A DNA stretch of 64,000 bases from Eledone cirrhosa (GCA_964016885.1 CAXHJY010000303.1:22154-86153), one strand, 5' to 3'. Shown: positions 20,661 through 57,172, counted from the stretch's first letter. The notes: generated by a model not told the origin, from the sequence alone. A program made the numbers and translations.

Positions 20661-23360
20661 CATCATCATCATCATCATCATCAACGTTTAACGTCCGTGT
20701 TCCACGCTTGCATGGGTTTGGACGGGGGTAGTCCCACTTGAGGCAAGAGTGATTGTCTTGCTCGCATAGGACTGTCTGGCAGGTTTTCTACAGTTGGATG
20801 CCCTTCCTAACACCAACCACATTTACAGTGTGGGTCTGGGAGGTTTTTACCGTGTTGCCTACACGGCCACATTACAGCGTGGACTGTGTGTTTTTTTGTC
20901 GTGACACCTACACGATCTCATTTGTTTCGGCCTGGATGGCGCGGCACCAACATAACTTTACATAGAACGGGGTGGTGTGGATGGGGTGGGTGGTGGTGGT
21001 GGTGGGACGGGGTGTATTTTGTTAGAGATGCCTACTGGCTGGAGTAGGTTTTACTATATATTTAGGTAAGGCGGGTCTTCTCTGTTACTGTGTACCGCCA
21101 AAGGTCTCGGTCCAGTGACATTGTCTTGGAGAGGTGTAAGTGTGTGATGTCGGAGTTTATCAGCTCGTCCCAGGTTTTTCTAGGTTTACCTATTCCGTGA
21201 CTACCGTCTATCTTTATTGCCCTGCACTTTGTTATACAGCTATCGACTTTCATGCGCATCACGTGTCCATACCAACGTAGCCTTCTCTCGAGTAAACAAC
21301 ATCTGATCCCTCTTATCTCTAATTTTTTCCTTAGTTCGTTTATGCTTTGCCGTTCACGTATATTACTGTTACACATCCAGCGGAGCATGCAAGCTTCGTT
21401 CCTCTCTAGTCTGCGTATATCCTCTGCACACAATGCCCAGGTCTCACTGCCATGCAGCATTGCTGTTCGTATGCAGGCATCGTACAACCTGCCTCTCATT
21501 TTTAGGGAGAACCCTTTAGCAGCTAATAGTGGTATAAGCTCTCTGAACTTTTTCCAATCAGTTCTGACTCTAGCTACAGTACTTTCAGAGCACCCTCCCC
21601 CACTGCTGATTTTATCGCCCAGGTAACGGAAGCTGTCCACTATTTCTATAGAACCCTCTGCGCAATTGAAAGAGCTAGTATTTTGTGGGCACTTGCTGCT
21701 ACTTATTGCACCAGAACACCGGCCACATGTAAAATCTATGTTCTTAGTTAGCTTACCTGTGATCCTACTACATCTTTTATGCACCCATACTTTGCATTTA
21801 GGACATAAAATGGAGTTTCTACCTACGCCTTTCCTACACACCGAGCACGACCATTTCCCAGAAGGGACCGCCGCCTTGTTTTCTTTCCTACAAACTAGAA
21901 CTTTGGTCTTAGCCAGGTTAATTTTAAGTCCTTTTGACTCTAGGCCGTGCTTCCATGTTTGGAATTTCTTCTCTAGCTCGGCCATTGATTCCGCTATGAG
22001 TGTCAGGTCGTCTACGTATAGGAGTTCCCATGGGCAGCCTGTCTTGAACTCCTCTGTTATAGCCTGAAGGGCAATAATAAATAGTAGGGGGCTGAGAACA
22101 GAGCCCTGATGGACGCCAACTTTTACGCTAAACTCTTCACTATATTCGTTGTTAATTCTAACCTTGCTGACTGTTTCTTTATACATGGCTTGTGTAGCCC
22201 TCACAAGCCATTCGTCAACGCCTAGTTTTCTAAGAGCCCACCAGATAATGGAGCGGGGGACTCTGTCGAAGGCTTTCTCCAAGTCGACAAAGGCTAAGTA
22301 GAGGGGTTTACCTTTAGCTAGGTACTTCTCCTGTAGTTGTCGTACTATGAAAAGAGCGTCTGTGGTACTTTTGCCTGACACAAACCCGAACTGCATTTCA
22401 TCTAGGTCAATTCTCTCTGATTAGTTGCGCTATTACTTTTTCCGTGACCTTCATGACCTGGTCGATTAATTTAATGCCTCTATAGTTACTCCTATCTAGG
22501 GCGTCTCCTTTACCCTTGTAACAGTTAACGATGATGCTGCTATGCCAGTCCTTCGGAACAACCCCATTCTGTACGACTTGGTTAACTATGCGGGTGACCA
22601 TGGTGTGTCCCACCGTGCCAGATGCCTTCAGCATCTCAGCAACTATTTCCGAAGGCCCAGCCGCCTTACCCGTCTTCATATCCTTGATTGCCTTACTTAT
22701 TATACTCCCCTCGACTAAAACTGCTGGTCCCTCTATTGGGTCGATATGGGGGAGACTGTCTTTCTCCCATTTATTCTCCTCATTTAGTAGCCTTTCATAG
22801 TGACACTTCCAAGCTACCTTCTTATCAGCGTCGGTGATGGCAAGTGTGCCATCGTCGTTTAGTACACACTTCTCCCCGACAATATCACGGTTTTCCTTGA
22901 CGCATTGCCTAGCAATCCTGAACACCTCACGTTTTTGGTCATCGCGTTGTAGAACATGCTTGAACTTTCTTTCCTCAGCTTCCCTTCTTGCTAAGTACAC
23001 TTGTCTCCTAGCTACACTCCTGGCCACTTGATAGTCTTCTCTACTTCCCCCATCCCGCCATACTTTCCAAGCCTGCTTTTTGGCCTTAATTGACCCCTCC
23101 ACCTTACTGTTCCACCACCATGTTGCTCTCCTCCTGCCTACAGGCCTGCTCCAGCCACAGACTTCGTCTGTCGCCATCAGCAGGTTTGCCTTCAGGAATT
23201 CCCACTGTCCCCTCTATATTGTCCGACTCTAAATGCTCTTCCTTACTGTCGAAAGCATTAAGTAATATGCTTTGGAATTTATTTCTGGCTGTGGGGTCCT
23301 TTAGCTTCCATATTTGTCTCCTGAGGATAACTGGTACCTCCAGTCGCTCCGCAAATGGAT
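20661..23360 (-). mobile_element. RTE-clade LINE, 5'-truncated, young copy with reverse transcriptase and a frameshift
   Basis: ORFs 22407-23177 and 21062-22396 carry RT motifs NYRGIKL, QFGF, FVDLEKAFDRV, GVHQGSVLSPLLF, YVDDL and the RTE C-terminal RRLRWYGHV...PRKTW; (GAT)n 3' tail; 2-bp deletion near 22410 relative to the copy at 13230. Confidence 0.95.
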
Positions 23361-25189: not shown

Positions 25190-26430
25190 CACTGCAACTA
25201 TAGATACCATACACTGTTTTTAACATTGTCATTATCACCACAACTACAACCTCTACTATTTACACCAACACTACAATTACAAATACTACTACTTAGACCA
25301 ACACCACAACTACAACCACTACCACCACAACTACAACTACTTGCACCAACACCACAACTACAACCTCTACTACTTACACCTATACCACAACTGCAACCAC
25401 TACTACTTATACCACTACCACCACAACTACAACTACTTGCACCAACACCACAACTACAACCTCTACTACTTAGACCAACCCAACAACTACAACCACTACT
25501 ACTTATACCACTACCACCACAACTACAACTACTTGCACCAACACCACAACTACAACCTCTACTACTTACACCTATACCACAACTGCAACCACTACTACTT
25601 ATACCACTACCACCACAACTACAACTACTTGCACCAACACCACAACTACAACCTCTACAACACCACAACTGCAACCACTACTACTTATACCACTACCACC
25701 ACAACTACAATTACTTGCACCAACACCACAACTACAACCTCTACTACTTAGACCAACCCAACAACTACAACCACTACTACTTATACCACTACCACCACAA
25801 CTACAACTACTTGCACCAACACCACAACTACAACCTCTACTACTTACACCTATACCACAACTGCAACCACTACTACTTATACCACTACCACCACAACTAC
25901 AACTACTTGCACCAACACCACAACTACAACCTCTACTACTTAGACCAACCCAACAACTACAACCACTACTACTTATACCACTACCACCACAACTACAACC
26001 TCTACTACTTACACCTATACCACAACTGCAACCACTACTACTTATACCACTACCACCACAACTACAACTACTTGCACCAACGCCACAACTACAACCTCTA
26101 CTACTTACACCAACACCACAACTGCAACCACTACTACTTATACCACTACCACCACAACTACAATTACTTGCACCAACACCACAACTACAACTGCTTGCAC
26201 CAACACCACAACTACAACCACTACTATTTACACCAACACCACAACTACAACCACTACTACTTAGACCACTACCACCACAACTACAACTGCTACTACTTGC
26301 ACCAACACAACTACAATCACTACTACTTCACCACACTAATACAACTTACACCACCAATGACACTACTAAGACCACTACCACCGCTACCATCTCTACTCAT
26401 ATCACCACCACAACTACAACCACTGCAGCC
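25190..26430. repeat. CA-rich minisatellite of ~30-33-bp subunits grouped in ~96-bp units
   Basis: Repeats of ccacaactacaac...; the ORF track shows a 32-aa period (PQLQLLAPTPQLQPLLLTPIPQLQPLLLIPLP). Confidence 0.92.
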
Positions 26431-27184: not shown

Positions 27185-27286
27185 AGTAAAGGTTTGGGGC
27201 ATAGATATAAAGTATAGTGTGTCAGACAACTACATTATTTTTAATAATCTTTTCTTTCAGATGAGGATGTCAGTTCTTCTGACACC

Positions 27287-27395
27287 ATGATGGAGCGGAG
27301 AATTCGTTTGAAGTCAGTCAATGTTCACATAACATGCACACTGTGTTCTGGCTACCTCATTGATGCGACCACCATCACAGAATGTCTGCATACAT
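27287..27395 (+). CDS. PCGF3: PCGF3 coding exon 1 (RING N-half; splice acceptor at 27260/27261)
   Basis: Encodes [36 protein letters not shown]; upstream acceptor tttctttcag|, donor T|gtgagt, phase 1. Confidence 0.95.
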
Positions 27396-29585: not shown

Positions 29586-29619
29586 TGTGTTAGCAGCCAA
29601 AGTGTATGATAGAGTTATA

Positions 29620-30540
29620 CCCGTATAAATACAGTGTGTGTAATCGAGACTGCCGCTTTCAAATTCTATGCAAATGAGGTGTTCAAATATTTTTGCTTTG
29701 GAGGTGAATATTACACCTGTTTACTTTTGATGTGTAGTTTGTTTTTCCTCTTGTTTTTTAAGTGTTTTGATTGAAAATGGACTTCAAAATGGTCAAAAAT
29801 TGGTAAATAGTCATTACATATTGGAGTTGTGAAACAAACTTTACTCTAAACAATGTTTAAAACATTTTGAATATCAAAAGAATAAAACTTCATAAATATA
29901 TTCTCCACTTATTAGAATTTCATATCTACATCATCTAAACATAATGTGTTGATTTCCTGTCTCGGCTTATAAACGGTGTTTGGATTTTTTTCTCTCATTT
30001 CTCAGACATAAAATATGGGGTTGGCTTATATACTGTATATCAAAATATTAACACTTCATAAAAATATTCTGTGGGAATTTACAAAACGGTGCCATCTAAA
30101 TGTAATGAATATTTTAATTAGCAGCCTCAGCTTATACTCAGAGTTTGGATTTTTGCCCATTTCTCAGACATAAAATAGTAGTTCATCTTATAGGCAAATC
30201 ATCTTATACACAAATATATACAGTGTATCCTCAGCATTTGCAATCCCGGCATTTGCAGTCCTGGTTATTTGCAGAATTTTCCTTAGAACGATCTTCTGCA
30301 ATTTTTTTTGTGGCAATATATATTTTTTAACACTAAATTATTAATAACAATATATCGTATTTGCCGACCTATTAGACACCCCTTCCCATAAAATGCTCCC
30401 TCTTTTTAAAATTATATTTTACGTTATATTTTGACGTTTATAGGCATTTTTATGGACCACGTCTAATATTTGTGGTTTTTCACTCTTTGTGGCTGCTCTA
30501 GCAATGTAACTCCCATGAATACTGGGGAACAACTGTACTG
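29620..30540. mobile_element. Unexpanded copy of the same MITE family with a single satellite monomer
   Basis: aaattctatgcaaatgaggtg...tttggaGGTGAATATTACACC (29703-29717) is followed by sequence colinear with 50820-51010 (for example gttgtgaaacaaa and aaaacttcataaatatattctccact); TIRs are degenerate. Confidence 0.8.
30221..30535. mobile_element. Tigger-like MITE nested in the right end of the previous element
   Basis: TA|CAGTGTATCCTCAGCATT ... GAATACTGGGGAACAACTG|TA imperfect TIRs with TA target duplication. Confidence 0.6.
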
Positions 30541-33500
30541 TAAATTAAAACCTAAGAATTAAGCTATATTACTATATTTCTTCAATGTTTACAAAATAAA
30601 TAGGAACATGAGCTATTTTTTGCATTAGAAATATGGTAATAAAAGGGTTAAAATGTAAATCAACAAGCAATCAGTTCATAAACATTATTTTTAGCCAATA
30701 AAGAATAGGTATACCATATTCCTGCACACTGCAAAAGGTTGGTAACTTGAAGGGAATATGACTGTAAAACATTGCCTCAAAAAAGAAACCATGATGAATA
30801 TTATTAAAATTGTTATTGGGTCCATACAGCTAACCCACACTTTAGTGGGGAAAATAGCTTTAAAATGTTTGATGGTGATGATGATGATGATGATGATGAT
30901 GACTACTATCAGAGCCTTATTTGTAAGAAGAGGCTAGACAGTAAAGGACAGCCAACATGTTATGTCTGCAGTCTAGTCCTCAACCAAGTGGAGACATTGT
31001 ATATATGTGATGTTAGATCTACAGATTGTACCCTAGCCCATTCACTCCTCTGAACATTTACTGTTTATACTCGTATATAAGCCAAGAAATATGTGATTTA
31101 AAAAAAATTGATGTTAAAATATATTTAAGATTTTTTGATTTTCACCATTGTAAAAATTCTATGTAAATGAAGTGCTAAAATATTTTCACTTTGGAGGTGA
31201 ATATTACACCAGTTTCACTTTGGAGGTGAATATTACACCAGTTTTATTTTGGGGTGAATATTACACCAGTTTTACTTTTGGGGTGAATATTACACCAGTT
31301 TCACTTTGGAGGTGAATATTACACCAGTTTTATTTTGGGGTGAATATTACACCAGTTTTACTTTTGGGGTGAATATTATACCAGTTTTACTTTTGGAGGT
31401 GAATATTATACCAGTTTTACTTTTAAGGTGAATATTATACCAGTTTTACTTTTGGGGTGAATATTACACCAGTTTCACTTTGGAGGTGAATATTACACCA
31501 GTTTCACTTTGAAGGTGAATATTACACCAGTTTTACTTTGAAGGTGAATATTACACCAGTTTCACTTTGAAGGTGAATATTACACCAGTTTTACTTTGGA
31601 GGTGAATATTACACCAGTTTCACTTTGGAGGTGAATATTACACCAGTTTTACTTTTGGGGTGAATATTACACCAGTTTTACTTTTGGGGTGAATATTACA
31701 CCAGTTTTACTTTTGGGGTGAATATTACACCAGTTTCACTTTGAAGGTGAATATTACACCAGTTTCACTTTGAAGGTGAATATTACACCAGTTTCACTTT
31801 GAAGGTGAATATTACACCAGTTTCACTTTGAAGGTGAATATTACACCAGTTTTACTTTGGAGGTGAATATTACACCAGTTTCACTTTGGAGGTGAATATT
31901 ACACCAGTTTTACTTTTGGGGTGAATATTACACCAGTTTCACTTTGGAGGTGAATATTATACCAGTTTTACTTTTGGGGTGAATATTACACCAGTTTCAC
32001 TTTGAAGGTGAATATTACACCAGTTTTACTTTGGAGGTGAATATTACACAGTTTTACTTTTGGGGTTAATATTACACCAGTTTTACTTTTGGGGTGAATA
32101 TTACACCAGTTTCACTTTAAAGGTGAATATTACACCAGTTTCACTTTGAAGGTGAATATTACACCAGTTTTACTTTGGAGGTGAATATTACACCAGTTTC
32201 ACTTTGAAGGTGAATATTACACCAGTTTCACTTTGAAGGTGAATATTACACCAGTTTCACTTTGAAGGTGAATATTACACCAGTTTTACTTTGGAGGTGA
32301 ATATTACACCAGTTTCACTTTGGAGGTGAATATTACACCAGTTTTACTTTGGAGGTGAATATTACACCAGTTTCACTTTGGAGGTGAATATTACACCAGT
32401 ATTATTTTGGGGTGAATATTAGACCAGTTTTACTTTTGGGGTGAATATTACATCAGTTTTACTTTTGGGGTGAATATTATACCAGTTTTACTTTTGGGGT
32501 GAATATTACACCAGTTTCACTTTGAAGGTGAATATTACACCAGTTTTACTTTGGAGGTGAATATTACACAGTTTTACTTTTGGGGTTAATATTACACCAG
32601 TTTTACTTTTGGGGTGAATATTACACCAGTTTCACTTTAAAGGTGAATATTACACCAGTTTTACTTTGGAGGTGAATATTACACCAGTTTTACTTTGGAG
32701 GTGAATATTACACCAGTTTCACTTTGGAGGTGAATATTACACCAGTTTCACTTTGGAGGTGAATATTACACCAGTTTCACTTTGAAGGTGAATATTACAT
32801 CAGTTTCACTTTGAAGGTGAATATTACATCAGTTTCACTTTGAAGGTGAATATTACACCAGTTTCACTTTGAAGGTGAATATTACATCAGTTTCACTTTG
32901 AAGGTGAATATTACATCAGTTTCACTTTGGAGGTGAATATTACACCAGTTTCACTTTGGAGGTGAATATTACACCAGTTTTACTTTTGGGGTGAATATTA
33001 CACCAGTTTTACTTTTGGGGTGAATATTACACCAGTTTCACTTTGGAGGTGAATATTACACCAGTTTCACTTTGAAGGTGAATATTACACCAGTTTTACT
33101 TTTGGAGGTGAATATTACACCAGTTTTATTTTGGAGGTGAATATTACACCAGTTTTACTTTGGAGGTGAATATTACACCAGTTTTACTTTTAGGGTGAAT
33201 ATTACACCAGTTTCACTTTGGAGGTGAATATTACATCAGTTTTACTTTTGGGGTGAATATTACACCAGTTTCACTTTGGAGGTGAATATTATACCAGTTT
33301 TACTTTTGGGGTGAATATTACACCAGTTTTACTTTTGGAGTGAATATTACACCAGTTTTACTTTTGGAGTGAATATTACACCAGTTTTACTTTTGGAGTG
33401 AATATTACACCAGTTTTACTTTTGGAGTGAATATTACACCAGTTTTACTTTTGGAGTGAATATTACACCAGTTTTACTTTTGGAGTGAATATTACACCAG

Positions 33501-36500
33501 TTTTACTTTTGGAGTGAATATTACACCAGTTTTACTTTTGGAGTGAATATTACACCAGTTTTACTTTTGGAGTGAATATTACACCAGTTTTATTTTGGAG
33601 GTGAATATTACACCAGTTTTACTTTTGGAGGTGAATATTACAACAGTTTTACTTTTGGAGGTGAATATTACACCAGTTTTATTTTGGAGGTGAATATTAC
33701 ACCAGTTTTATTTTGGAGGTGAATATTACACCAGTTTTACTTTGGAGGTGAATATTACACCCGTTTTACTTTTGGGGTGAATATTACACCAGTTTCACTC
33801 TGGAGGTGAATATTATACCAGTTTTACTTTTGGGGTTAATATTACACCAGTTTCACTTTGGAGGTGAATATTACACCAGTTTTACTTTGGAGGTGAATAT
33901 TATACCAGTTTTACTTTTGGGGTGAATATTACACCAGTTTCACTTTGGAGGTGAATATTACACCAGTTTTACTTTTGGAGTGAATATTACACCAGTTTTA
34001 CTTTTGGAGTGAATATTACACCAGTTTTACTTTTGGAGTGAATATTACACCAGTTTTACTTTTGGAGTGAATATTACACCAGTTTTACTTTTGGAGTGAA
34101 TATTACACCAGTTTTACTTTTGGAGTGAATATTACACCAGTTTTACTTTGGAGGTGAATATTACACCAATTTTACTTTCGGAGTGAATATTACACCAGTT
34201 TTACTTTGGAGTGAATATTACACCAATTTTACTTTTGGAGTGAATATTACACCAGTTTTACTTTTGGGGTGAATATTACACCAGTTTCACTTTGGAGGTG
34301 AATATTACACCAGTTTTACTTTTGGGGTGAATATTACACCAGTTTTACTTTTAAGGTGAATATTACACCAGTTTTACTTTGGAAGTGAATATTACACTAG
34401 TTTTACTTTTGGGGTGAATATTACACCAGTTTTACTTTAGATGTGAATATTACACCAGTTTCACTTTGAAGGTGAATATTACACCAGTTTTACTTTGGAG
34501 GTGAATATTACACCAGTTTTACTTTTAGGGTGAATATTACACCAGTTTCACTTTGGAGGTGAATATTACATCAGTTTTACTTTTGGGGTGAATATTACAC
34601 CAGTTTCACTTTGGAGGTGAATATTATACCAGTTTTACTTTTGGGGTGAATATTACACCAGTTTTACTTTTGGAGTGAATATTACACCAGTTTTACTTTT
34701 GGAGTGAATATTACACCAGTTTTACTTTTGGAGTGAATATTACACCAGTTTTACTTTTGGAGTGAATATTACACCAGTTTTACTTTTGGAGTGAATATTA
34801 CACCAGTTTTACTTTTGGAGTGAATATTACACCAGTTTTACTTTTGGAGTGAATATTACACCAGTTTTACTTTTGGAGTGAATATTACACCAGTTTTACT
34901 TTTGGAGTGAATATTACACCAGTTTTATTTTGGAGGTGAATATTACACCAGTTTTACTTTTGGAGGTGAATATTACAACAGTTTTACTTTTGGAGGTGAA
35001 TATTACACCAGTTTTATTTTGGAGGTGAATATTACACCAGTTTTATTTTGGAGGTGAATATTACACCAGTTTTACTTTGGAGGTGAATATTACACCCGTT
35101 TTACTTTTGGGGTGAATATTACACCAGTTTCACTCTGGAGGTGAATATTATACCAGTTTTACTTTTGGGGTTAATATTACACCAGTTTCACTTTGGAGGT
35201 GAATATTACACCAGTTTTACTTTCGAGGTGAATATTATACCAGTTTTACTTTTGGGGTGAATATTACACCAGTTTCACTTTGGAGGTGAATATTACACCA
35301 GTTTTACTTTTGGAGTGAATATTACACCAGTTTTACTTTTGGAGTGAATATTACACCAGTTTTACTTTTGGAGTGAATATTACACCAGTTTTACTTTTGG
35401 AGTGAATATTACACCAGTTTTACTTTTGGAGTGAATATTACACCAGTTTTACTTTTGGAGTGAATATTACACCAGTTTTACTTTGGAGGTGAATATTACA
35501 CCAATTTTACTTTCGGAGTGAATATTACACCAGTTTTACTTTGGAGTGAATATTACACCAATTTTACTTTTGGAGTGAATATTACACCAGTTTTACTTTT
35601 GGGGTGAATATTACACCAGTTTCACTTTGGAGGTGAATATTACACCAGTTTTACTTTTGGGGTGAATATTACACCAGTTTTACTTTTAAGGTGAATATTA
35701 CACCAGTTTTACTTTGGAAGTGAATATTACACTAGTTTTACTTTTGGGGTGAATATTACACCAGTTTTACTTTAGATGTGAATATTACACCAGTTTCACT
35801 TTGAAGGTGAATATTACACCAGTTTTACTTTGGAAGTGAATATTACACAGTTTTACTTTTGGGGTGAATATTACACCAGTTTCACTTTGGAGGTGAATAT
35901 TACACCAGTTTTACTTTTAAGGTGAATATTACACCAGTTTCACTTTGGAGGTGAATATTACACCAGTTTTACTTTTGGAGTGAATATTACACCAGTTTTA
36001 CTTTGGAGGTGAATATTACACCAGTTTTACTTTTGGAGTGAATATTACACCAGTTTTACTTTTGGAGTGAATATTACACCAGTTTTACTTTTGGGGTGAA
36101 TATTACACCAGTTTTACTTTTAAGGTGAATATTACACCAGTTTCACTTTGAAGGTGAATATTACACCAGTTTTACTTTTAAGGTGAATATTACACCAGTT
36201 TCACTTTGGAGGTGAATATTACACCAGTTTCACTTTGGAGGTGAATATTACACCAGATTTACTTTTGGGGTGAATATTACACCAGTTTCACTTTTCGGGT
36301 GAATATTACACCAGTTTCACTTTGAAGGTGAATATTACACCAGTTTCACTTTGAAGGTGAATATTACATCAGTTTTATTTTGGAGGTGAATATTACACCA
36401 GTTTTACTTTGGAAGTGAATATTACAGTTTTACTTTTGGGGTGAAAATTACACCAGTTTTACTTTTGGGGTGAATATTACACCAGTTTCACTTTGGTGGT

Positions 36501-39500
36501 GAATATTACACCAGTTTCACTTTGAAGGTGAATATTACATCAGTTTCACTTTGGAGGTGAATATTACACCAGTTTTATTTTGGAGGTGAATATTACACCA
36601 GTTTCACTTTGGAGGTGAATATTATACCAGTTTTACTTTAGATGTGAATATTACACCAGTTTTACTTTTGGGGTGAATATTACATCAGTTTTACTTTGGA
36701 AGTGAATATTACACAGTTTTACTTTTGGGGTTAATATTACACCAGTTTCACTTTGGAGGTGAATATTACACCAGTTTTACTTTTGGGGTGAATATTACAC
36801 CAGTTTCACTTTGGAGGTGAATATTACACCAGTTTTACTTTTAAGGTGAATATTACACCAGTTTTACTTTTAAGGTGAATATTACACCAGTTTCACTTTG
36901 GAGGTGAATATTACACCAGTTTTACTTTAGATGTGAATATTACACCAGTTTTACTTTTGGGGTGAATATTACACCAGTTTCACTTTGAAGGTGAATATTA
37001 CACCAGTTTTACTTTGGAAGTGAATATTACACAGTTTTACTTTTGGGGTTAATATTACACCAGTTTCACTTTGGAGGTGAATATTACACCAGTTTTACTT
37101 TTGGGGTGAATATTACACCAGTTTCACTTTGAAGGTGAATATTACACCAATTTCACTTTTAAGGTGAATATTACATCAGTTTCACTTTGGAGGTGAATAT
37201 TATACCAGTTTCACTTTGAAGGTGAATATTACACCAGTTTCACTTTGGAGGTGAATATTACACCAGTTTTACTTTTAAGGTGAATATTACACCAGTTTCA
37301 CTTTGAAGGTGAATATTACACCAGTTTTACTTTTAAGGTTAATATTACATCAGTTTCACTTTGGAGGTGAATATTACACCAGTTTCACTTTGAAGGGGAA
37401 TATTACACCAGTTTTACTTTGGAGTTGAATATTACACAGTTTTACTTTTGGGGTTAATATTACACCAGTTTCACTTTGGAGGTGAATATTACACCAGTTT
37501 TACTTTTGGGGTGAATATTACACCAGTTTTACTTTTGGGGTGAATATTACACCAGTTTCACTTTGAAGGTGAATATTACACCAATTTCACTTTTAAGGTG
37601 AATATTACATCAGTTTCACTTTGGAGGTGAATATTACACCAGTTTCACTTTGGAGGTGAATATTATACCAGTTTTACTTTGGAGGTGAATATTACACCAG
37701 TTTTATTTTGGAGGCGAATATTACACCAGTTTTACTTTGGAGGTGAATATTACACCAGTTTTACTTTTGGGGTGAACATTACACCAGTTTCACTTTGGAG
37801 GTGAATATTATACCAGTTTTACTTTTGGGGTGAATATTACACCAGTTTCACTTTGGAGGTGAATATTACACCAGTTTTACTTTTGGGGCGAATATTACAC
37901 GAGTTTCACTTTGGAGGTGAATATTATACCAGTTTTACTTTGGATGTGAATATTACACCAGTTTCACTTTGGAGGTGAATATTATACCAGTTTTACTTTT
38001 GGGGTGAATATTACACCAGTTTCACTTTGGAGGTGAATATTACACCAGTTTTACTTTTGGAGTGAATATTACACCAGTTTTACTTTTGGAGTGAATATTA
38101 CACCAGTTTTACTTTTGGTGTGAATATTACACCAGTTTTACTTTTGGAGTGAATATTACACCAGTTTTATTTAGGAGGTGAATATTACACCAGTTTTACT
38201 TTTGGAGGTGAATATTACACCAGTTTTACTTTTGGTGGTGAATATTACACCAGTTTTATTTTGGAGGTGAATATTACACCAGTTTTATTTTGGAGGTGAA
38301 TATTACACCAGTTTTACTTTGGAGGTGAATATTACACCAGTTTTACTTTTGGGGTGAATATTACACCAGTTTCACTTTGGAGGTGAATATTATACCAGTT
38401 TTACTTTTGGGGTGAATATTACACCAGTTTCACTTTGGAGGTGAATATTACACCAGTTTTACTTTTGGGGTGAATATTACACCAGTTTCACTTTGGAGGT
38501 GAATATTATACCAGTTTTACTTTTGGGGTGAATATTACACCAGTTTCACTTTGGAGGTGAATATTACACCAGTTTTACTTTTGGAGTGAATATTACACCA
38601 GTTTTACTTTTGGAGTGAATATTACACCAGTTTTACTTTTGGAGTGAATATTACACCAGTTTTACTTTTGGAGTGAATATTACACCAGTTTTACTTTTGG
38701 TGTGAATATTACACCAGTTTTACTTTTGGAGTGAATATTACACCAGTTTTACTTTTGGAGTGAATATTACACCAGTTTTACTTTTGGAGTGAATATTACA
38801 CCAGTTTTACTTTGGAGGTGAATATTACACCAATTTTACTTTTGGAGTGAATATTACACCAGTTTTACTTTGGAGTGAATATTACACCAATTTTACTTTT
38901 GGAGTGAATATTACACCAGCTTTACTTTTGGGGTGAATATTACCCCAGTTTTACTTTTGGGGTGAATATTACACCAGTTTTACTTTTAAGGTGAATATTA
39001 CACCAGTTTTACTTTGGAAGTGAATATTACACCAGTTTTACTTTTGGAGTGAATATTACACCAGTTTTACTTTTGGGGTGAATATTACACCAGTTTTACT
39101 TTAGATGTGAATATTACACCAGTTTCACTTTGAAGGTGAATATTACACCAGTTTTACTTTGGAAGTGAATATTACACCAGTTTTATTTTGGAGGTGAATA
39201 TTACACCAGTTTCACTTTGGAGGTGAATATTACACCAGTTTCACTTTTGTGGTGAATATTACACCAGTTTCACTTTGGAGGTGAATATTATACCAGTTTT
39301 ACTTTAGATGTGAATATTACACCAGTTTTACTTTTGGGATGAATATTACATCAGTTTTACTTTGGAAGTGAATATTACACAGTTTTACTTTTGGGGTTAA
39401 TATTACACCAGTTTCACTTTGGAGGTGAATATTACACCAGTTTTACTTTTGGGGTGAATATTACACCAGTTTCACTTTGGAGGTGAATATTACACCAGTT

Positions 39501-40420
39501 TTACTTTTAAGGTGAATATTACACCAGTTTTACTTTTAAGGTGAATATTACACCAGTTTCACTTAGGAGGTGAATATTACACCAGTTTTACTTTAGATGT
39601 GAATATTACACCAGTTTTACTTTTGGGGTGAATATTACACCAGTTTCACTTTGAAGGTGAATATTACACCAGTTTTATTTTGGAAGTGAATATTACACAG
39701 TTTTACTTTTGGGGCTAATATTACACCAGTTTCACTTTGGAGGTGAATATTACACCAGTTTTACTTTTGGGGTGAATATTACACCAGTTTCACTTTTGAA
39801 GGTGAATATTACACCAATTTCACTTTTAAGGTGAATATTACATCAGTTTCACTTTGGAGGTGAATATTACACCAGTTTCACCTTGAAGGTGAATATTACA
39901 CCAGTTTCACTTTGGAGGTGAATATTACACCAGTTTTACTTTTAAGGTGAATATTACACCAGTTTCACTTTGAAGGTGAATATTACACCAGTTTTACTTT
40001 TAAGGTGAATATTACATCAGTTTCACTTTGGAGGTGAATATTACACCAGTTTCACTTTGAAGGTGAATATTACACCAGTTTTACTTTGGAGTTGAATATT
40101 ACACAGTTTTACTTTTGGGGTTAATATTACACCAGTTTCACTTTGGAGGTGAATATTACACCAGTTTTACTTTTGGGGTGAATATTACACCAGTTTTACT
40201 TTGAAGGTGAATATTACACCAATTCACTTTTAAGGTGAATATTACATCAGTTTCACTTTGGAGGTGAATATTACACCAGTTTCACTTTGGAAGTGAATAT
40301 TATACCAGTTTTACTTTGGAGGTGAATATTACACCAGTTTTACTTTTGGGGTGAATATTACACCAGTTTCACTTTGGAGGTGAATATTATACCAGTTTTA
40401 CTTTAGATGTGAATATTACA

Positions 40421-40480
40421 AGGGCGGTGCCCCAGCATGGCCTCAGCCGGATGGCTGAAACAGGTAAGAGAGTAAAAGAG
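40421..40480 (+). mobile_element. 60-bp 5'-truncated retroposon 3' tail inserted in the satellite (copy 1)
   Basis: agggcggtgccccagcatggcctcagccggatggctgaaacaggtaagagagtaaaagag flanked by direct repeat TATTACA; a diverged relative lies at ~6233-6284. Confidence 0.85.
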
Positions 40481-43400
40481 TATTACACCAGTTTTATTTT
40501 GGAGGTGAATATTACACCAGTTTTACTTTTGGGGTGAATATTACACCAGTTTCACTTTGGAGGTGAATATTATACCAGTTTTACTTTTGGGGTGAATATT
40601 ACACCAGTTTCACTTTGGAGGTGAATATTACACCAGTTCTACTTTTGGGGTGAATATTACACCAGTTTCACTTTGGAGGTGAATATTATACCAGTTTTAC
40701 TTTGGAGGTGAATATTACACCAGTTTTACTTTTGGGGTGAATATTACACCAGTTTCACTTTGGAGGTGAATATTATACTAGTTTTACTTTTGGGGTGAAT
40801 ATTACACCAGTTTCACTTTGGAGGTGAATATTACACCAGTTTTACTTTTGGGGTGAATATTACACCAGTTTCACTTTGGAGGTGAATATTATACCAGTTT
40901 TACTTTTGGGGTGAATATTACACCAGTTTCACTTTGGAGGTGAATATTACACCAGTTTTACTTTTGGAGTGAATATTACACCAGTTTTACTTTTGGAGTG
41001 AATATTACACCAGTTTTACTTTTGGAATGAATATTACACCAGTTTTACTTTGGGAGTGAATATTACACCAGTTTTACTTTTGGTGTGAATATTACACCAG
41101 TTTTACTTTTGGAGTGAATATTACACCAGTTTTATTTAGGAGGTGAATATTACACCAGTTTTACTTTTGGAGGTGAATATTACACCAGTTTTACTTTTGG
41201 TGGTGAATATTACACCAGTTTTATTTTGGAGGTGAATATTACACCAGTTTTACTTTGGAGGTGAATATTACACCAGTTTTACTTTTGGGGTGAATATTAC
41301 ACCAGTTTCACTTTGGAGGTGAATATTATACCAGTTTTACTTTTGGGGTGAATATTACACCAGTTTCACTTTGGAGGTGAATATTACACCAGTTTTACTT
41401 TTGGGGTGAATATTACACCAGTTTCACTTTGGAGGTGAATATTATACCAGTTTTACTTCTGGGGTGAATATTACACCAGTTTCACTTTGGAGGTGAATAT
41501 TACACCAGTTTTACTTTTGGAGTGAATTTTACACCAGTTTTACTTTTGGAGTGAATATTACACCAGTTTTACTTTTGGAGTGAATATTACACCAGTTTTA
41601 CTTTTGGAGTGAATATTACACCAGTTTTACTTTTGGTGTGAATATTACACCAGTTTTACTTTTGGAGTGAATATTACACCAGTTTTACTTTTGGAGTGAA
41701 TATTACACCAGTTTTACTTTGGAGGTGAATATTACACCAATTTTACTTTTGGAGTAAATATTACACCAGTTTTACTTTGGAGTGAATATTACACCAATTT
41801 TACTTTTGGAGTGAATATTACACCAGCTTTACTTTTGGGGTGAATATTACCCCAGTTTTACTTTTGGGGTGAATATTACACCAGTTTTACTTTTAAGGTG
41901 AATATTACACCAGTTTTACTTTGGAAGTGAATATTACACCAGTTTTACTTTTGGAGTGAATATTACACCAGTTTTACTTTTGGGGTGAATATTACACCAG
42001 TTTTACTTTAGATGTGAATATTACACCAGTTTCACTTTGAAGGTGAATATTACACCAGTTTTACTTTGGAAGTGAATATTACACCAGTTTTATTTTGGAG
42101 GTGAATATTACACCAGTTTCACTTTGGAGGTGAATATTACACCAGTTTCACTTTTGTGGTGAATATTACACCAGTTTCACTTTGGAGGTGAATATTATAC
42201 CAGTTTTACTTTAGATGTGAATATTACACCAGTTTTACTTTTGGGATGAATATTACATCAGTTTTACTTTGGAAGTGAATATTACACAGTTTTACTTTTG
42301 GGGTTAATATTACACCAGTTTCACTTTGGAGGTGAATATTACACCAGTTTTACTTTTGGGGTGAATATTACACCAGTTTCACTTTGGAGGTGAATATTAC
42401 ACCAGTTTTACTTTTAAGGTGAATATTACACCAGTTTTACTTTTAAGGTGAATATTACACCAGTTTCACTTAGGAGGTGAATATTACACCAGTTTTACTT
42501 TAGATGTGAATATTACACCAGTTTTACTTTTAAGGTGAATATTACACCAGTTTTACTTTGGAAGTGAATATTACACCAGTTTTACTTTTGGAGTGAATAT
42601 TACACCAGTTTTACTTTTGGGGTGAATATTACACCAGTTTTACTTTAGATGTGAATATTACACCAGTTTCACTTTGAAGGTGAATATTACACCAGTTTTA
42701 CTTTGGAAGTGAATATTACACCAGTTTTATTTTGGAGGTGAATATTACACCAGTTTCACTTTGGAGGTGAATATTACACCAGTTTCACTTTTGTGGTGAA
42801 TATTACACCAGTTTCACTTTGGAGGTGAATATTATACCAGTTTTACTTTAGATGTGAATATTACACCAGTTTTACTTTTGGGATGAATATTACATCAGTT
42901 TTACTTTGGAAGTGAATATTACACAGTTTTACTTTTGGGGTTAATATTACACCAGTTTCACTTTGGAGGTGAATATTACACCAGTTTTACTTTTGGGGTG
43001 AATATTACACCAGTTTCACTTTGGAGGTGAATATTACACCAGTTTTACTTTTAAGGTGAATATTACACCAGTTTTACTTTTAAGGTGAATATTACACCAG
43101 TTTTACTTAGGAGGTGAATATTACACCAGTTTTACTTTAGATGTGAATATTACACCAGTTTTACTTTTGGGGTGAATATTACACCAGTTTCACTTTGAAG
43201 GTGAATATTACACCAGTTTTACTTTGGAAGTGAATATTACACAGTTTTACTTTTGGGGCTAATATTACACCAGTTTCACTTTGGAGGTGAATATTACACC
43301 AGTTTTACTTTTGGGGTGAATATTACACCAGTTTCACTTTTGAAGGTGAATATTACACCAATTTCACTTTTAAGGTGAATATTACATCAGTTTCACTTTG

Positions 43401-43877
43401 GAGGTGAATATTACACCAGTTTCACCTTGAAGGTGAATATTACACCAGTTTCACTTTGGAGGTGAATATTACACCAGTTTTACTTTTAAGGTGAATATTA
43501 CACCAGTTTCACTTTGAAGGTGAATATTACACCAGTTTTACTTTTAAGGTGAATATTACATCAGTTTCACTTTGGAGGTGAATATTACACCAGTTTCACT
43601 TTGAAGGTGAATATTACACCAGTTTTACTTTGGAGTTGAATATTACACAGTTTTACTTTTGGGGTTAATATTACACCAGTTTCACTTTGGAGGTGAATAT
43701 TACACCAGTTTTACTTTTGGGGTGAATATTACACCAGTTTTACTTTGAAGGTGAATATTACACCAATTCACTTTTAAGGTGAATATTACACCAGTTTTAC
43801 TTTTGGGGTGAATATTACACCAGTTTCACTTTGGAGGTGAATATTATACCAGTTTTACTTTAGATGTGAATATTACA

Positions 43878-43937
43878 AGGGCGGTGCCCCAGCATGGCCT
43901 CAGCCGGATGGCTGAAACAGGTAAGAGAGTAAAAGAG
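43878..43937 (+). mobile_element. 60-bp retroposon tail in the satellite (copy 2)
   Basis: Identical to 40421-40480, with the same TATTACA duplication and the same preceding tttagatgtgaa monomer variant. Confidence 0.85.
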
Positions 43938-46667
43938 TATTACACCAGTTTTATTTTGCAGGTGAATATTACACCAGTTTTACTTTTGGGGTGAATATTA
44001 CACCAGTTTCACTTTGGAGGTGAATATTATACCAGTTTTACTTTTGGGGTGAATATTACACCAGTTTCACTTTGGAGGTGAATATTACACCAGTTCTACT
44101 TTTGGGGTGAATATTACACCAGTTTCACTTTGGAGGTGAATATTATACCAGTTTTACTTTGGAGGTGAATATTACACCAGTTTTACTTTTGGGGTGAATA
44201 TTACACCAGTTTCACTTTGGAGGTGAATATTATACTAGTTTTACTTTTGGGGTGAATATTACACCAGTTTCACTTTGGAGGTGAATATTACACCAGTTTT
44301 ACTTTTGGGGTGAATATTACACCAGTTTCACTTTGGAGGTGAATATTATACCAGTTTTACTTTTGGGGTGAATATTACACCAGTTTCACTTTGGAGGTGA
44401 ATATTACACCAGTTTTACTTTTGGAGTGAATATCACACCAGTTTTACTTTTGGAATGAATATTACACCAGTTTTACTTTGGGAGTGAATATTACACCAGT
44501 TTTACTTTTGGTGTGAATATTACACCAGTTTTACTTTTGGAGTGAATATTACACCAGTTTTATTTAGGAGGTGAATATTACACCAGTTTTACTTTTGGAG
44601 GTGAATATTACACCAGTTTTACTTTTGGTGGTGAATATTACACCAGTTTTATTTTGGAGGTGAATATTACACCAGTTTTATTTTGGAGGTGAATATTACA
44701 CCAGTTTTACTTTGGAGGTGAATATTACACCAGTTTTACTTTTGGGGTGAATATTACACCAGTTTCACTTTGGAGGTGAATATTATACCAGTTTTACTTT
44801 TGGGGTGAATATTACACCAGTTTCACTTTGGAGGTGAATATTACACCAGTTTTACTTTTGGGGTGAATATTACACCAGTTTCACTTTGGAGGTGAATATT
44901 ATACCAGTTTTACTTTTGGAGTGAATTTTACACCAGTTTTACTTTTGGAGTGAATATTACACCAGTTTTACTTTTGGAGTGAATATTACACCAGTTTTAC
45001 TTTTGGTGTGAATATTACACCAGTTTTACTTTTGGAGTGAATATTACACCAGTTTTACTTTTGGAGTGAATATTACACCAGTTTTACTTTTGGAGTGAAT
45101 ATTACACCAGTTTTACTTTGGAGGTGAATATTACACCAATTTTACTTTTGGAGTAAATATTACACCAGTTTTACTTTGGAGTGAATATTACACCAATTTT
45201 ACTTTTGGAGTGAATATTACACCAGCTTTACTTTTGGGGTGAATATTACCCCAGTTTTACTTTTGGGGTGAATATTACACCAGTTTTACTTTTAAGGTGA
45301 ATATTACACCAGTTTTACTTTGGAAGTGAATATTACACCAGTTTTACTTTTGGAGTGAATATTACACCAGTTTTACTTTTGGGGTGAATATTACACCAGT
45401 TTTACTTTAGATGTGAATATTACACCAGTTTCACTTTGAAGGTGAATATTACACCAGTTTTACTTTGGAAGTGAATATTACACCAGTTTTATTTTGGAGG
45501 TGAATATTACACCAGTTTCACTTTGGAGGTGAATATTACACCAGTTTCACTTTTGTGGTGAATATTACACCAGTTTCACTTTGGAGGTGAATATTATACC
45601 AGTTTTACTTTAGATGTGAATATTACACCAGTTTTACTTTTGGGATGAATATTACATCAGTTTTACTTTGGAAGTGAATATTACACAGTTTTACTTTTGG
45701 GGTTAATATTACACCAGTTTCACTTTGGAGGTGAATATTACACCAGTTTTACTTTTGGGGTGAATATTACACCAGTTTCACTTTGGAGGTGAATATTACA
45801 CCAGTTTTACTTTTAAGGTGAATATTACACCAGTTTTACTTTTAAGGTGAATATTACACCAGTTTCACTTAGGAGGTGAATATTACACCAGTTTTACTTT
45901 AGATGTGAATATTACACCAGTTTTACTTTTGGGGTGAATATTACACCAGTTTCACTTTGAAGGTGAATATTACACCAGTTTTACTTTGGAAGTGAATATT
46001 ACACAGTTTTACTTTTGGGGCTAATATTACACCAGTTTCACTTTGGAGGTGAATATTACACCAATTTCACTTTTAAGGTGAATATTACATCAGTTTCACT
46101 TTGGAGGTGAATATTACACCAGTTTCACCTTGAAGGTGAATATTACACCAGTTTCACTTTGGAGGTGAATATTACACCAGTTTTACTTGTAAGGTGAATA
46201 TTACACCAGTTTCACTTTGAAGGTGAATATTACACCAGTTTTACTTTTAAGGTGAATATTACATCAGTTTCACTTTGGAGGTGAATATTACACCAGTTTC
46301 ACTTTGAAGGTGAATATTACAGCAGTTTTACTTTGGAGTTGAATATTACACAGTTTTACTTTTGGGGTTAATATTACACCAGTTTCACTTTGGAGGTGAA
46401 TATTATACCAGTTTTACTTTTGGGGTGAATATTACACCAGTTTTACTTTGAAGGTGAATATTACACCAATTCACTTTTAAGGTGAATATTACATCAGTTT
46501 CACTTTGGAGGTGAATATTACACCAGTTTCACTTTGGAGGTGAATATTATACCAGTTTTACTTTGGAGGTGAATATTACACCAGTTTTACTTTTGGGGTG
46601 AATATTACACCAGTTTCACTTTGGAGGTGAATATTATACCAATTTTACTTTAGATGTGAATATTACA

Positions 46668-46727
46668 AGGGCGGTGCCCCAGCATGGCCTCAGCCGGATG
46701 GCTGAAACAGGTAAGAGAGTAAAAGAG
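46668..46727 (+). mobile_element. 60-bp retroposon tail in the satellite (copy 3)
   Basis: Identical to the other two copies, in the same context. Confidence 0.85.
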
Positions 46728-49700
46728 TATTACACCAGTTTTATTTTGGAGGTGAATATTACACCAGTTTTACTTTTGGGGTGAATATTACACCAGTTTC
46801 ACTTTGGAGGTGAATATTATACCAGTTTTACTTTTGGGGTGAATATTACACCAGTTTCACTTTGGAGGTGAATATTACACCAGTTCTACTTTTGTGGTGA
46901 ATATTACACCAGTTTCACTTTGGAGGTGAATATTATACCAGTTTTACTTTGGAGGTGAATATTACACCAGTTTTACTTTTGGGGTGAATATTACACCAGT
47001 TTCACTTTGGAGGTGAATATTATACTAGTTTTACTTTTGGGGTGAATATTACACCAGTTTCACTTTGGAGGTGAATATTACACCAGTTTTACTTTTGGGG
47101 TGAATATTACACCAGTTTCACTTTGGAGGTGAATATTATACCAGTTTTACTTTTGGGGTGAATATTACACCAGTTTCACTTTGGAGGTGAATATTACACC
47201 AGTTTTACTTTTGGAGTGAATATTACACCAGTTTTACTTTTGGAGTGAATATTACACCAGTTTTACTTTTGGAGTGAATATTACACCAGTTTTACTTTGG
47301 GAGTGAATATTACACCAGTTTTATTTAGGAGGTGAATATTACACCAGTTTTACTTTTGGAGGGGAATATTACACCAGTTTTACTTTTGGTGGTGAATATT
47401 ACACCAGTTTTATTTTGGAGGTGAATATTACACCAGATTTATTTTGGAGGTGAATATTACACCAGTTTTACTTTGGAGGTGAATATTACACCAGTTTTAC
47501 TTTTGGGGTGAATATTACACCAGTTTCACTTTGGAGGTGAATATTATACCAGTTTTACTTTTGGGGTGAATATTACACCAGTTTCACTTTGGAGGTGAAT
47601 ATTACACCAGTTTTACTTTTGGGGTGAATATTACACCAGTTTCACTTTGGAGGTGAATATTATACCAGTGTTACTTTTGGGGTGAATATTACACCAGTTT
47701 CACTTTGGAGGTGAATATTACACCAGTTTTACTTTTGGAGTGAATATTACACCAGTTTTACTTTTGGAGTGAATATTACACCAGTTTTACTTTTGGAGTG
47801 AATATTACACCAGTTTTACTTTTGGTGTGAATATTACACCAGTTTTACTTTTGGAGTGAATATTACACCAGTTTTACTTTTGGAGTGAATATTACACCAG
47901 TTTTACTTTTGGAGTGAATATTACACCAGTTTTACTTTTGGGGTGAATATTACACCAGTTTTACTTTTCGGGTGAATATTACACCAGTTTTACTTTTAAG
48001 GTGAATATTACACCAGTTTTACTTTGGAAGTGAATATTACACCAGTTTTACTTTTGGAGTGAATATTACACCAGTTTTACTTTTGGGGTGAATATTACAC
48101 CAGTTTTACTTTAGATGTGAATATTACACCAGTTTCACTTTGAAGGTGAATATTACACCAGTTTTACTTTGCAAGTGAATATTACACAGTTTTACTTTTG
48201 GGGTGAATATTACACCAGTTTCACTTTGGAGGTGAATATTACACCAGTTTTACTTTTGGGGTGAATATTACACCAGTTTTACTTTTGGAGTGAATATTAC
48301 ACCAGTTTTACTTTTGGAGTGAATATTACACCAGTTTTACTTTTGGAGTGAATATTACACCAGTTTTATTTAGGAGGTGAATATTACACCAGTTTTACTT
48401 TTGGAGGTGAATATTACACCAGTTTTTCTTTTGGTGGTGAATATTACACCAGTTTTATTTTGGAGGTGAATATTACACCAGTTTTATTTTGGAGGTGAAT
48501 ATTACACCAGTTTTACTTTGGAGGTGAATATTACACCAGTTTTACTTTTGGGGTGAATATTACACCAGTTTCACTTTGGAGGTGAATATTATACCAGTTT
48601 TACTTTTGGGGTGAATATTACACCAGTTTCACTTTGGAGGTGAATATTACACCAGTTTTACTTTTGGGGTGAATATTACACCAGTTTCACTTTGGAGGTG
48701 AATATTATACCAGTTTTACTTTTGGGGTGAATATTACACCAGTTTCACTTTGGAGGTGAATATTACACCAGTTTTACTTTTGGGGTAAATATTACACCAG
48801 TTTCACTTTGGAGGTGAATATTATACCAGTTTTACTTTTGGGGTGAATATTACACCAGTTTCACTTTGGAGGTGAATATTACACCAGTTTTACTTTTGGA
48901 GTGAATATTACACCAGTTTTACTTTTGGAGTGAATATTACACCAGTTTTACTTTTGGAGTGAATATTACACCAGTTTTACTTTTGGTGTGAATATTACAC
49001 CAGTTTTACTTTTGGAGTGAATATTACACCAGTTTTACTTTTGGAGTGAATATTACACCAGTTTTACTTTTGGAGTGAATATTACACCAGTTTTACTTTT
49101 GGTGTGAATATTACACCAGTTTTACTTTTGGAGTGAATATTACACCAGTTTTACTTTTGGAGTGAATATTACACCAGTTTTACTTTTAGAGTGAATATTA
49201 CAACAGTTTTACTTTGGCGGTGAATATTACACCAATTTTACTTTTGGAGTGAATATTACACCAGTTTTACTTTGGAGTGAATATTACACCAATTTTACTT
49301 TTGGAGTGAATATTACACCAGTTTTACTTTTGGGGTGAATATTACACCAGTTTTACTTTTGGGGTGAATATTACACCAGTTTTACTTTTAAGGTGAATAT
49401 TACACCAGTTTTACTTTGGAAGTGAATATTACACCAGTTTTACTTTTGGAGTGAATATTACACCAGTTTTACTTTTGGGGTGAATATTACACCAGTTTTA
49501 ATTTAGATGTGAATATTACACCAGTTTCACTTTGAAGGTGAATATTACACCAGTTTTACTTTGGAAGTGAATATTACACAGTTTTACTTTTGGGGTGAAT
49601 ATTACACCAGTTTCACTTTGGAGGTGAATATTACACCAGTTTTACTTTTGGGGTGAATATTACACCAGTTTCACTTTGAAGGTGAATATTACACCAGTTT

Positions 49701-51265
49701 TACTTTTGGGGTGAATATTACACCAGTTTCACTTTGGAGGTGAATATTACACCAGTTTCACTTTGGAGGTGAATATTACACCAGTTTTACTTTTAAGGTG
49801 AATATTACACCAGTTTCACTTTGGAGGTGAATATTACACCAGTTTTACTTTTGGAGTGAATATTACACCAGTTTTACTTTTGGAGTGAATATTACACCAG
49901 TTTTACTTTTGGAGTGAATATTACACCAGTTTTACTTTTGGAGTGAATATTACACCAGTTTTACTTTTTGGGTGAATATTACACCAGTTTTACTTTTGGA
50001 GTGAATATTACACCAGTTTTACTTTTGGAGTGAATATTACACTAGTTTTACTTTTGGGGTGAATATTACACCAGTGTTACTTTTAAGGTGAATATTACAC
50101 CAGTTTCACTTTGAAGGTGAATATTACACCAGTTTTACTTTTAAGGTGAATATTACACCAGTTTCACTTTGGAGGTGAATATTACACCAGTTTTACTTTT
50201 AAGGTGAATATTACACCATTTTCACTTTGAAGGTGAATATTACACCAGTTTTACTTTTAAGGTGAATATTACACCAGTTTCACTTTGGAGGTGAATATTA
50301 CACCAGTTTTACTTTTAGGGTGAATATTACATCAGTTTCACTTTGAAGGTGAATATTATACCAGTTTTACTTTTGGGGTGAATATTACACCAGTTTCACT
50401 TTTGGGGTGAATATTACACCAGTTTCACTTTGGAGGTGAATATTACACCAGTTTAACTTTTGGGGTGAATATTACACCAGTTTCACTTTGGAGGTGAATA
50501 TTACCCCAGTTTCACTTTGGAGGTGAATATTATACCAGTTTTACTTTTGGGATGAATATTACATCAGTTTTACTTTTGGGTTGAATATTACACCAGTTTT
50601 ACTTTTAAGGTGAATATTACACCAGTTTCACTTTGAAGGTGAATATTACACCAATTTCACTTTTAAGGTGAATATTACACCAGTTTTACTTTTAATGTGA
50701 ATATATTACACCAGTTTCACTTTGAAGGTGAATATTACATCAGTTTCACTTTGGAGGTGAATATTACACCAGTTTTACTTTTAAGGTGAATATTACAACA
50801 GTTTTATTTTCGACGTGAATTTTCTATTTCCTATTGCTTTTTTATGTTTTGAATGAATATGGCCTTCAAAACAATCTGAAATTGGTAAAAAATCATTACA
50901 TAGTGCAGTTGTGAAACAAAAACTATATTCTAGACAACACTTAAAACATTTTGAATATAAAAATATTAAAACTTCATAAATATATTCTCCACTCATTAGA
51001 ATTTCAAAATTGCACTATCGACACATTACCTGCCTTAACCTATAAACAGGATTTCAATTTTTGTCTATTTCTTAGACATAAAATAGGGGGTGGGTCAGCT
51101 TATATTCAAGTATATACAGTATTTACCACATGTTTAGTCAGGCATAACTGATGCAACAGAAACAGGAATAACAACAACAGAAACATACCCAACTGTTTAC
51201 ATTTTTCATGAAATATTATTAGAGGATTTGTTTAAAAATGGTTTTATACTTTTTTTATCTTGTAG

Positions 51266-51362
51266 TCTGCAAAAGCTGTTTGGTTCGTTACCTGGATGAC
51301 AATAACACTTGCCCTACTTGTGAAATTGTGATTCATCAGAGTCACCCACTTAATTACATCAG
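51266..51362 (+). CDS. PCGF3: PCGF3 coding exon 2 (RING C-half)
   Basis: ttttatcttgtag| then (F)CKSCLVRYLDDNNTCPTCEIVIHQSHPLNYI, donor AG|gtgagt, phase 2. Confidence 0.95.
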
Positions 51363-55459: not shown

Positions 55460-57172
55460 AGCTGTAGTGTCTAATGTACAGATGTGGTGTCTGATGTATT
55501 ATCTAGAGCTCTAATGTCTGATGTATTATCTACAGATGTAGTGTCTGATGTATTATCTATAGATGTAATGTTTGATATATTATCATCAGATGTAATGCCT
55601 GATGTATTGTCACAAGATGTAATGTCTGATATATTATCTACAGATGTTGTGTCTGATGTATTATTTAGAGATGTAGTCATCATCATCATCATCATCATCA
55701 ACGTTTAACGTCCGTGTTCCACGCTTGCATGGGTTTGGACGGGGGTAGTCCCACTTGAGGCAAGAGTGATTGTCTTGCTCGCATAGGACTATCTGGCAGG
55801 TTTTCTACAGTTGGATGCCCTTCCTAACACCAACCACATTTACAGTGTGGGTCTGGGAGGTTTTTACCGTGTTGCCTACACGGCCACATTACAGCGTGGA
55901 CTGTGTGTTTTTTTGTCGTGACACCTACACGATCTCATTTGTTTTGGCCTGGATGGCGCGGCACCAACATAACTTTACATAGAACGGGGTGGTGTGGGGG
56001 TGGGGGTGGTGGGACGGGGTGTATTTTGTTAGAGATGCCTACTGGCTGTAGTAGGTTTTACTATGTATTTAGGTAAGGCGGGTCTTCTCTGTTACTGAGT
56101 ACCGCCAAAGGTCTCGGTCCAGTGACATTGTCTTGGTGAGGTGTAAGTGTGTGAGGTCGGAGTTTATCAGCTCGTCCCAGGTTTTTCTAGGTCTGCCTAT
56201 TCCGTGGCTACCGTCTATCTTTATTTCCCTGCACTTTGTTATACAGCTATCAACTTTCATGCGCATCACGTGTCCATACCAACGTAGCCTTCTCTCGAGT
56301 AAACAACATCTGATCCCTCTTATTTCTAATTTTTTCCTTAGTTCGTTTATGCTTTGCCGTTCACGTATATTACTGTTACACATCCAGCGGAGCATGCAAG
56401 CTTCGTTCCTCTCTAGTCTGCGTATATCCTCTGCACACAATGCCCAGGTCTCACTGCCATGCAACATTGCTGTTCGTATGCAGGCATCGTACAACCTGCC
56501 TTTCATTTTTAGGGAGAACCCTTTAGCAGCTAATAGTGGTATAAGCTCTCTGAACTTTTTCCAACCAGTTCTGACTCTAGCTACTGTACTTTCAGAGCAC
56601 CCTCCCCCACTGCTGATTTTATTGCCCAGGTAACGGAAGCTGTCCACTATTTCTATAGAACCCTCTGCGCAATTGAAAGAGCTAGTATTTTGTGGGCACT
56701 TGCTGCTACTTATTGCACCAGAGCACCGGCCACATGTAAAATCTATGTTCTTAATTAGCTTACCTGTGATCCCACTACATCTTTTATGCACCCATACTTT
56801 GCATTTAGGACATAAAATGGAGTTTCTACCTACGCCTTTCCTACACACCGAGCACGACCATTTCCCAGAAGGGACCGCCGCCTTATTTTCTTTCCTACAA
56901 ACTAGAACTTTAATCTTAGCCAGGTTAATTTTAAGTCCTTTTGATTCTAGGCCGTGCTTCCATGTTTGGAATTTCTTCTCTAGCTCGGCCATTGATTCCG
57001 CTATGAGTGTCAAGTCGTCTGCGTATAGGAGTTCCCATGGGCAGCCGGTCTTGAACTCCTCTGTTATAGCCTGAAGGGCAATAATAAATAGTAGTAAATA
57101 GTAGTGTCTGATGTAATATCTAAAGATATGTAATATCTGATATATTATCTACAGATGTAGTGTCTGATGTAA
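55460..57172. repeat. 27-bp minisatellite (tctacagatgtagtgtctgatgtatta) split by an RTE insertion
   Basis: About 8 units at 55460-55677, continuing at 57100-57172. Confidence 0.88.
55677..57094 (-). mobile_element. RTE-clade LINE 3' part, near-identical to the 20.7-22.1 kb copy
   Basis: ORF 56069-57013; 3'UTR almost identical to 20661-21060; inserted in a 27-bp minisatellite. Confidence 0.94.

Follow-up and report, generated by a model that had tools for sequence, protein, structure and literature searches.

A layered 29-bp satellite array between the ends of a Passer-type MITE in an octopus PCGF3 intron

How does a unit inside a short transposable element grow into a satellite, and how much of that growth can be read from one locus? 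Within the 64,000-nt stretch of DNA analysed here (the window), an array of 29-bp repeats lies between the two ends of a MITE, about 1.5 kb downstream of a relative of the same element that carries a single repeat core. The initial annotation took the pair for the ancestral and expanded states side by side, and the array for a satellite caught at birth. We consider it likely that a unit inside a pogo-type MITE of ~0.45 kb gave rise to the array in place, long after the insertion of the MITE itself. The expansion of an internal 29-mer within a TA-flanked, pogo-type MITE, annotated as ~675-fold, is supported, but its proposed start from the neighbour's present state is not, and the array proved to be mature and layered rather than newborn.

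The element and its host intron

The Octopus PCGF3 protein (P0001) maps onto seven exons within the window, one of them (60783-61010) at 100% identity, and its alignment around the intron at 27396-51265 places the array inside PCGF3, as first annotated. This 23.9-kb intron interrupts the RING finger and holds the entire element (31061-51119, TIR to TIR), which ends 146 bp before the downstream exon; the array in its element accounts for 82% of the intron's length. From exon to exon, the features are as follows.

27257-27395 (+): PCGF3 exon, N-terminal half of the RING finger (tblastn with P0001 residues 23-68, 100% identical; GT donor at 27396)
31059-31060: left TA beside the left TIR, putative target duplication
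31061-31082 (+): left TIR (19/22 to the right TIR; 20/26 to the Gekko PasserC TIR)
31083-31183 (+): left arm, AT-rich, non-coding (contigs of other copies join 31096 to 31153/31154)
31184-50820 (+): 29-bp array of ~675 units with a quasi-palindromic core, two linker types and higher-order blocks of 1.3 kb and 2.8-3.5 kb (Tandem Repeats Finder and core splitting)
50821-51097 (+): right arm, AT-rich, non-coding (arm analysis)
51098-51119 (−): right TIR (22/26 to the Gekko PasserC TIR, the top match of the whole window)
51120-51121: right TA beside the right TIR
51266-51362 (+): next PCGF3 exon, C-terminal half of the RING finger (P0001 residues 70-100, 30/31 identical; AG acceptor, GT donor)

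Within the second RING exon, 51268-51360 differs from P0001 by a single residue, Arg for Gln. Elsewhere in the window, an ACT-rich 33/96-bp minisatellite of ~1.1 kb (25236-26333) lies upstream of the first mapped PCGF3 exon, and several related LINE fragments occur at 21065-22420 (carrying RVT_1 and PHD domains), 56072-57148, 58445-59404 and, on the minus strand, 12911-13222.

The anatomy of TIRs and TAs exceeds chance: when the flanks are compared in inverted orientation, the best 24-mer agrees at 21/24 positions, and 200 shuffles gave at most 19/24. The annotated 22-bp TIRs with a TA on each side are present and the non-array sequence, put at ~120 and ~300 bp, measures 123 and 299 bp (422 bp in total, 73-80% AT); the ends, called intact, are in fact decayed. 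With no stop-free frame longer than 64 codons, the arms are short and non-coding, as in a MITE. Flanking TAs and TIRs of <30 bp are also described for Passer (PS, DD35D), a member of the pogo superfamily (PMC9976928), and the left TIR gives the second-best match to Gekko PasserC in the window. The supplement of that paper includes Passer elements from two Octopus species as well as vertebrate ends very like these; the Octopus TIRs in its listing are related, not identical, to those of the present element, which, unlike Passer, encodes no transposase.

Tandem Repeats Finder assigned the array a period of 29 over 19.6 kb, and core splitting recovered 673 cores, in agreement with the ~675 units annotated at this position. 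Every unit is on the plus strand, the window contains no Ns, and the cores comprise 102 distinct variants, 50 of them singletons. Units differ by ~10% in mean pairwise comparison (n=619), the core by 1.5% and the linker by 16.6%; since the variation falls on five positions of the linker, we do not read the low core divergence as selection. At positions 19 and 25 of the linker, the bases are strongly associated (C-G in 195, T-T in 283, T-G in 102 and C-T in 12 of the 619 units), although these counts are inflated by block duplication and shaped by both mutation bias and block copying. As in a classical satellite, the array is long, head-to-tail and of higher order; large arrays of classical satellites are free of transposon ends and usually heterochromatic, and this one is intronic with both ends retained. 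Folding of five monomers gave z = -4.4 with a nearly unstructured centroid, as repeated quasi-palindromes would give, and hairpin-driven slippage, perhaps aided by the quasi-palindromic core, might conceivably have contributed to seeding the array.

In the sense of PCGF3, the array contains 632 GTGAAT words, with GAG/GTGAAT in 213 units and AAG/GTGAAT in 106, each after a T-rich tract. By their sequence, such AG/GTGAAT units resemble weak 5′ or recursive splice sites.

A one-core relative and a dispersed family

The relative of the element lies upstream in the same intron, among further fragments.

29609-29634: weak Passer-like end in right-end orientation (17/26 to the Passer TIR on the minus strand; repeated in sequencing runs)
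29661-30040 (+): sibling copy whose one core (29703-29717) lies between half-repeats, with ~43 bp of left arm, a full right arm and a degenerate TIR (62/70 and 281/346 alignments)
30034-30223 (+): second, partial right-arm copy ending in a decayed TIR, then TG (71% to 29868-30015, E 3e-15; 19/26 to the Passer TIR)

The sibling aligns significantly with the array flanks, as had been anticipated: 29691-30052 matches the array end and right arm at 281/346 positions (81%; score 376, compared with a shuffle maximum of 75) and 29661-29730 matches the array start at 62/70. It is therefore a one-core copy collinear with the array through both arms, which speaks for growth in place. The homologous flanks of the initial annotation were thus recovered, but the left one amounts to only ~43 bp; homology ends at 29661, and ~90 bp of left arm, including the TIR, are missing. 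Its single monomer likewise proved to be one core, the only one in the window outside the array, flanked by 16-bp direct half-repeats (12/16 alike, one period apart) that bring the unit to ~1.5 periods altogether. A left TIR at 29620 was rejected, with 9-10/26 matches as a left end; the best match there (17/26) faces the opposite way and ends at 29634. The segment 29609-29634 is possibly the end of another element, which may have removed the sibling's left end. At the 3′ side, 29868-30015 recurs at 71% similarity as 30034-30177. The only one-core copy seen is this truncated one; no complete copy of this kind, with TIRs at both ends, came to light.

The Jukes-Cantor distance between the sibling and the array arms is 0.22; if one applies the rate that PMC13282606 uses, 0.0036 per million years, the two would have split very roughly 30 million years ago. 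Being 5′-truncated, 3′-duplicated and 19% diverged, the sibling is a decayed cousin of the array-bearing element and not its ancestor, which leaves the reading of ancestral and expanded states side by side unsupported. Between sibling and array, 30301-30537 and 30580-30689 are high-copy repeats by summed run depth.

Four of seven public sequencing runs were compared over 29590-31230, namely X1 from organism A, X2 and X3 from one sample, and a fourth; the read depth of the RAD run (X5) was excluded from abundance estimates. X2 and X3 match 30914-31092 without difference and may be the window's own source, so they are not independent. Many contigs leave the family's right end into unlike flanks (146 + 84 in X1, 164 in X2, 168 in X3), and the family is therefore dispersed in both organism labels. 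One X1 contig crosses the left TA junction of the present element and stops 34 bases inside the left TIR, at 31094. It differs at 4 or more of 126 bases (three listed, at 31036, 31038 and 31049); we read it as the same insertion in a second species. The left junction is present in both labels and no empty TA site was seen among them, which is why the target duplication is termed putative.

Monomer depth is about 7-14 times the summed arm depth in both organism labels, a rough ratio, as summed depth is not copy number. As an upper bound, with every 31-mer counted as its own contig, the array would account for 1/3.4 of the monomer depth in X2 and 1/2.7 in X3; these fractions become 1/1.7 and 1/1.35 if a baseline contig represents one haplotype. 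In X1, the most extreme overcount gives a ratio of 0.7, at which a single array of this size could suffice. None of 8 monomer variants taken from the runs occurs in the array, although some derive from noisy consensus lines and could be allelic. Together with the >100 right ends in unlike flanks, these variants support the annotated expectation that a dispersed family carries the 29-mer elsewhere in the genome. When metagenome and prokaryote-genome collections were scanned for exact matches to a 26-nt arm motif and a monomer dimer, 0 loci were returned, and the 15-nt core had 0 matches in literature full texts and in the searched supplements of PMC9976928 and PMC13282606. The octopus family was not found in print in these searches; the repeat library of PMC13282606 may already contain it.

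These data bear on where the first copies came from. The C-G linker type matches the left arm and left half-repeat and the T-T type matches the right half-repeat, which agrees with the earliest duplications having arisen between the half-repeats: through slippage or unequal exchange, these imperfect 16-bp sequences would have created the first copies, and such exchange would explain why left-type and right-type linkers both occur in the array. The excess of T-G over C-T hybrids weakens this argument, being equally compatible with a C-to-T mutation bias. It is also possible, albeit rather doubtful in our view, that a short multi-unit array was part of the family from earlier on, or that the family had captured a pre-existing satellite, the one-core sibling being a collapsed or decayed array. 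Degenerate unit-like sequence flanks the core on both sides in both copies, and the monomer's abundance relative to the arms in both organism labels would suit such an origin; moreover, capture of a pre-existing repeat has been proposed for the Xenopus element miDNA4 (PMC12628747), and deletion from a preformed array for DTC84 of Donax (PMC3879986). However, the sibling's half-repeats differ at the linker-type positions, which is simplest if both pre-date the array, and 61% of miDNA4 copies are reported to hold one unit (PMC12054243).

Layers within the array

At the level of single monomers, the array records several successive events. Mapping the order of monomer variants revealed 26 repeated runs of at least 10 monomers, covering 62% of the units, with no such run in any of 20 order shuffles; 67 units at the start of the array and 63 at its end lie outside these runs. 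The clearest markers are the following.

33138-35807 (+): tandem duplicate of a 46-monomer (1335-bp) block, the copies one base apart (block comparison)
40420-40480 (+): 61-bp non-satellite insertion in a monomer core, copy 1 of 3 (6-bp target duplication)
43877-43937 (+): insertion copy 2, identical (sequence identity)
46667-46727 (+): insertion copy 3, identical (sequence identity)

Based on its target duplication and short repeated end, the insertion is likely the truncated 3′ tail of a retroposon, and outside the array it has a relative at 6231-6285 (76% match, E 1e-6). No insertion-free exact paralog of the insertion-bearing block stood out in the array. Near 37686, a similar monomer order occurs without the insert, an observation that is only suggestive. 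Over 2674 bp, the blocks between insertions show 9 base differences, to which 6 monomer indel events are added; compared locally, blocks are 0.19 to 1.0% different, and blocks of 1.3-6.3 kb are overall 0.07-1% apart.

These layers suggest an order of events. The first step would have been the insertion of the short MITE at a TA by a Passer-type transposase, at a time when organism labels A and B had not yet split. This would have been followed by the first duplications between half-repeats and by the divergence of the units, which falls nearly all in the linker. A retroposon-like tail would then have entered one core, and its block is present in three copies. The insertion preceded triplication of this ~3-kb block, and much of the array length is therefore recent; likewise, since the near-identical blocks form much of the middle, most of the length likely stems from recent unequal crossover of kilobase blocks, a growth that probably took place within about 1.5 million years at 0.0036 per million years. 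The element and the monomer types are far older than this gain in length. Spliced out with the intron, the array would be selfish or neutral DNA with no host function.

Could the array be real but its 20-kb length inflated by an assembler that strung together duplicated haplotype blocks? A 1335-bp block one base from its neighbour and three identical insertions are what such an error might leave, no spanning read was seen in the runs, and the length is that of the assembly. We nevertheless hold this to be improbable, because the larger blocks differ by substitutions as well as the 6 monomer indel events, the longest exact repeat is 894 bp, the sequence is free of Ns, and monomer depth in X2 and X3 is above what the array alone could give. 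A recent single burst from the neighbour's one-monomer state might be read into the retained TIRs, the young higher-order blocks and the one-core relative 1.5 kb away, but it is very unlikely, and for the monomer family largely refuted, given the sibling's divergence and truncation, the left junction common to a second organism label, and the several stages implied by 102 variants, 10% pairwise divergence and a nested insertion.

Precedents and meaning

Growth of a MITE-internal repeat into a satellite was earlier proposed for frogs, flies and bivalves. The frog element, miDNA4, was reportedly first described by Scalvenzi and Pollet in 2014. In the accounts of PMC12628747, PMC9659126 and PMC12054243, miDNA4 is a Tc1/mariner MITE of Xenopus whose satellite motif is present as one monomer or as an array; microhomologies flanking the monomer are proposed as the trigger, and long arrays are proposed to become free satellites. 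The octopus locus resembles it in having a MITE-internal motif with short direct repeats beside the monomer, and in that the same arms enclose either one core (at 29703, in a copy without left TIR) or ~675 units. As far as these accounts go, the octopus locus differs in its host, its 29-bp unit, its length (19.6 kb, compared with a typical 300-600 bp in miDNA4), and its higher-order blocks and nested insertion, acquired with both TIRs kept. We regard miDNA4, published with the same growth model (PMC12628747), as the closest precedent, by a likeness of working that need not imply homology.

Other systems share parts of this picture. DTC84 of Donax and the pearl elements, as described in PMC3879986, likewise have tandem palindrome-bearing core repeats in a non-autonomous element and ordered variant types, but DTC84 differs by its AA target site and microsatellite module, and its core repeats are few. 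In Drosophila virilis, Tetris (PMC4079207) can be likened for tandem repeats in a non-autonomous element, although by that account its TIR repeats are the source of its satellites. Lathyrus sativus has satellites derived from a retrotransposon (PMC7004042), with short arrays in a dispersed element and occasional great expansion; there, the element is an LTR retrotransposon and the reported expansion pericentromeric, whereas the octopus array sits in a DNA transposon in a gene intron.

The locus is thus a clear new example of the known route from transposon to satellite, unusually large and legible, and reveals no new mechanism. Both ends, both half-repeats, a nested insertion as time marker and kilobase duplicates make the order and scale of the steps readable from one allele. 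More tentatively, a Passer-type MITE family may seed an undescribed octopus 29-bp satellite genome-wide, its insertions serving as independent, datable growth experiments from one unit to hundreds; the present locus would then be a rare late intermediate, a 20-kb array with both TIRs whose length would differ between close Octopus species and whose AG/GTGAAT motifs might affect splicing of the RING-finger intron. Should array sizes prove graded across further copies of the family, the rates of satellite birth and growth could be measured directly in a cephalopod.
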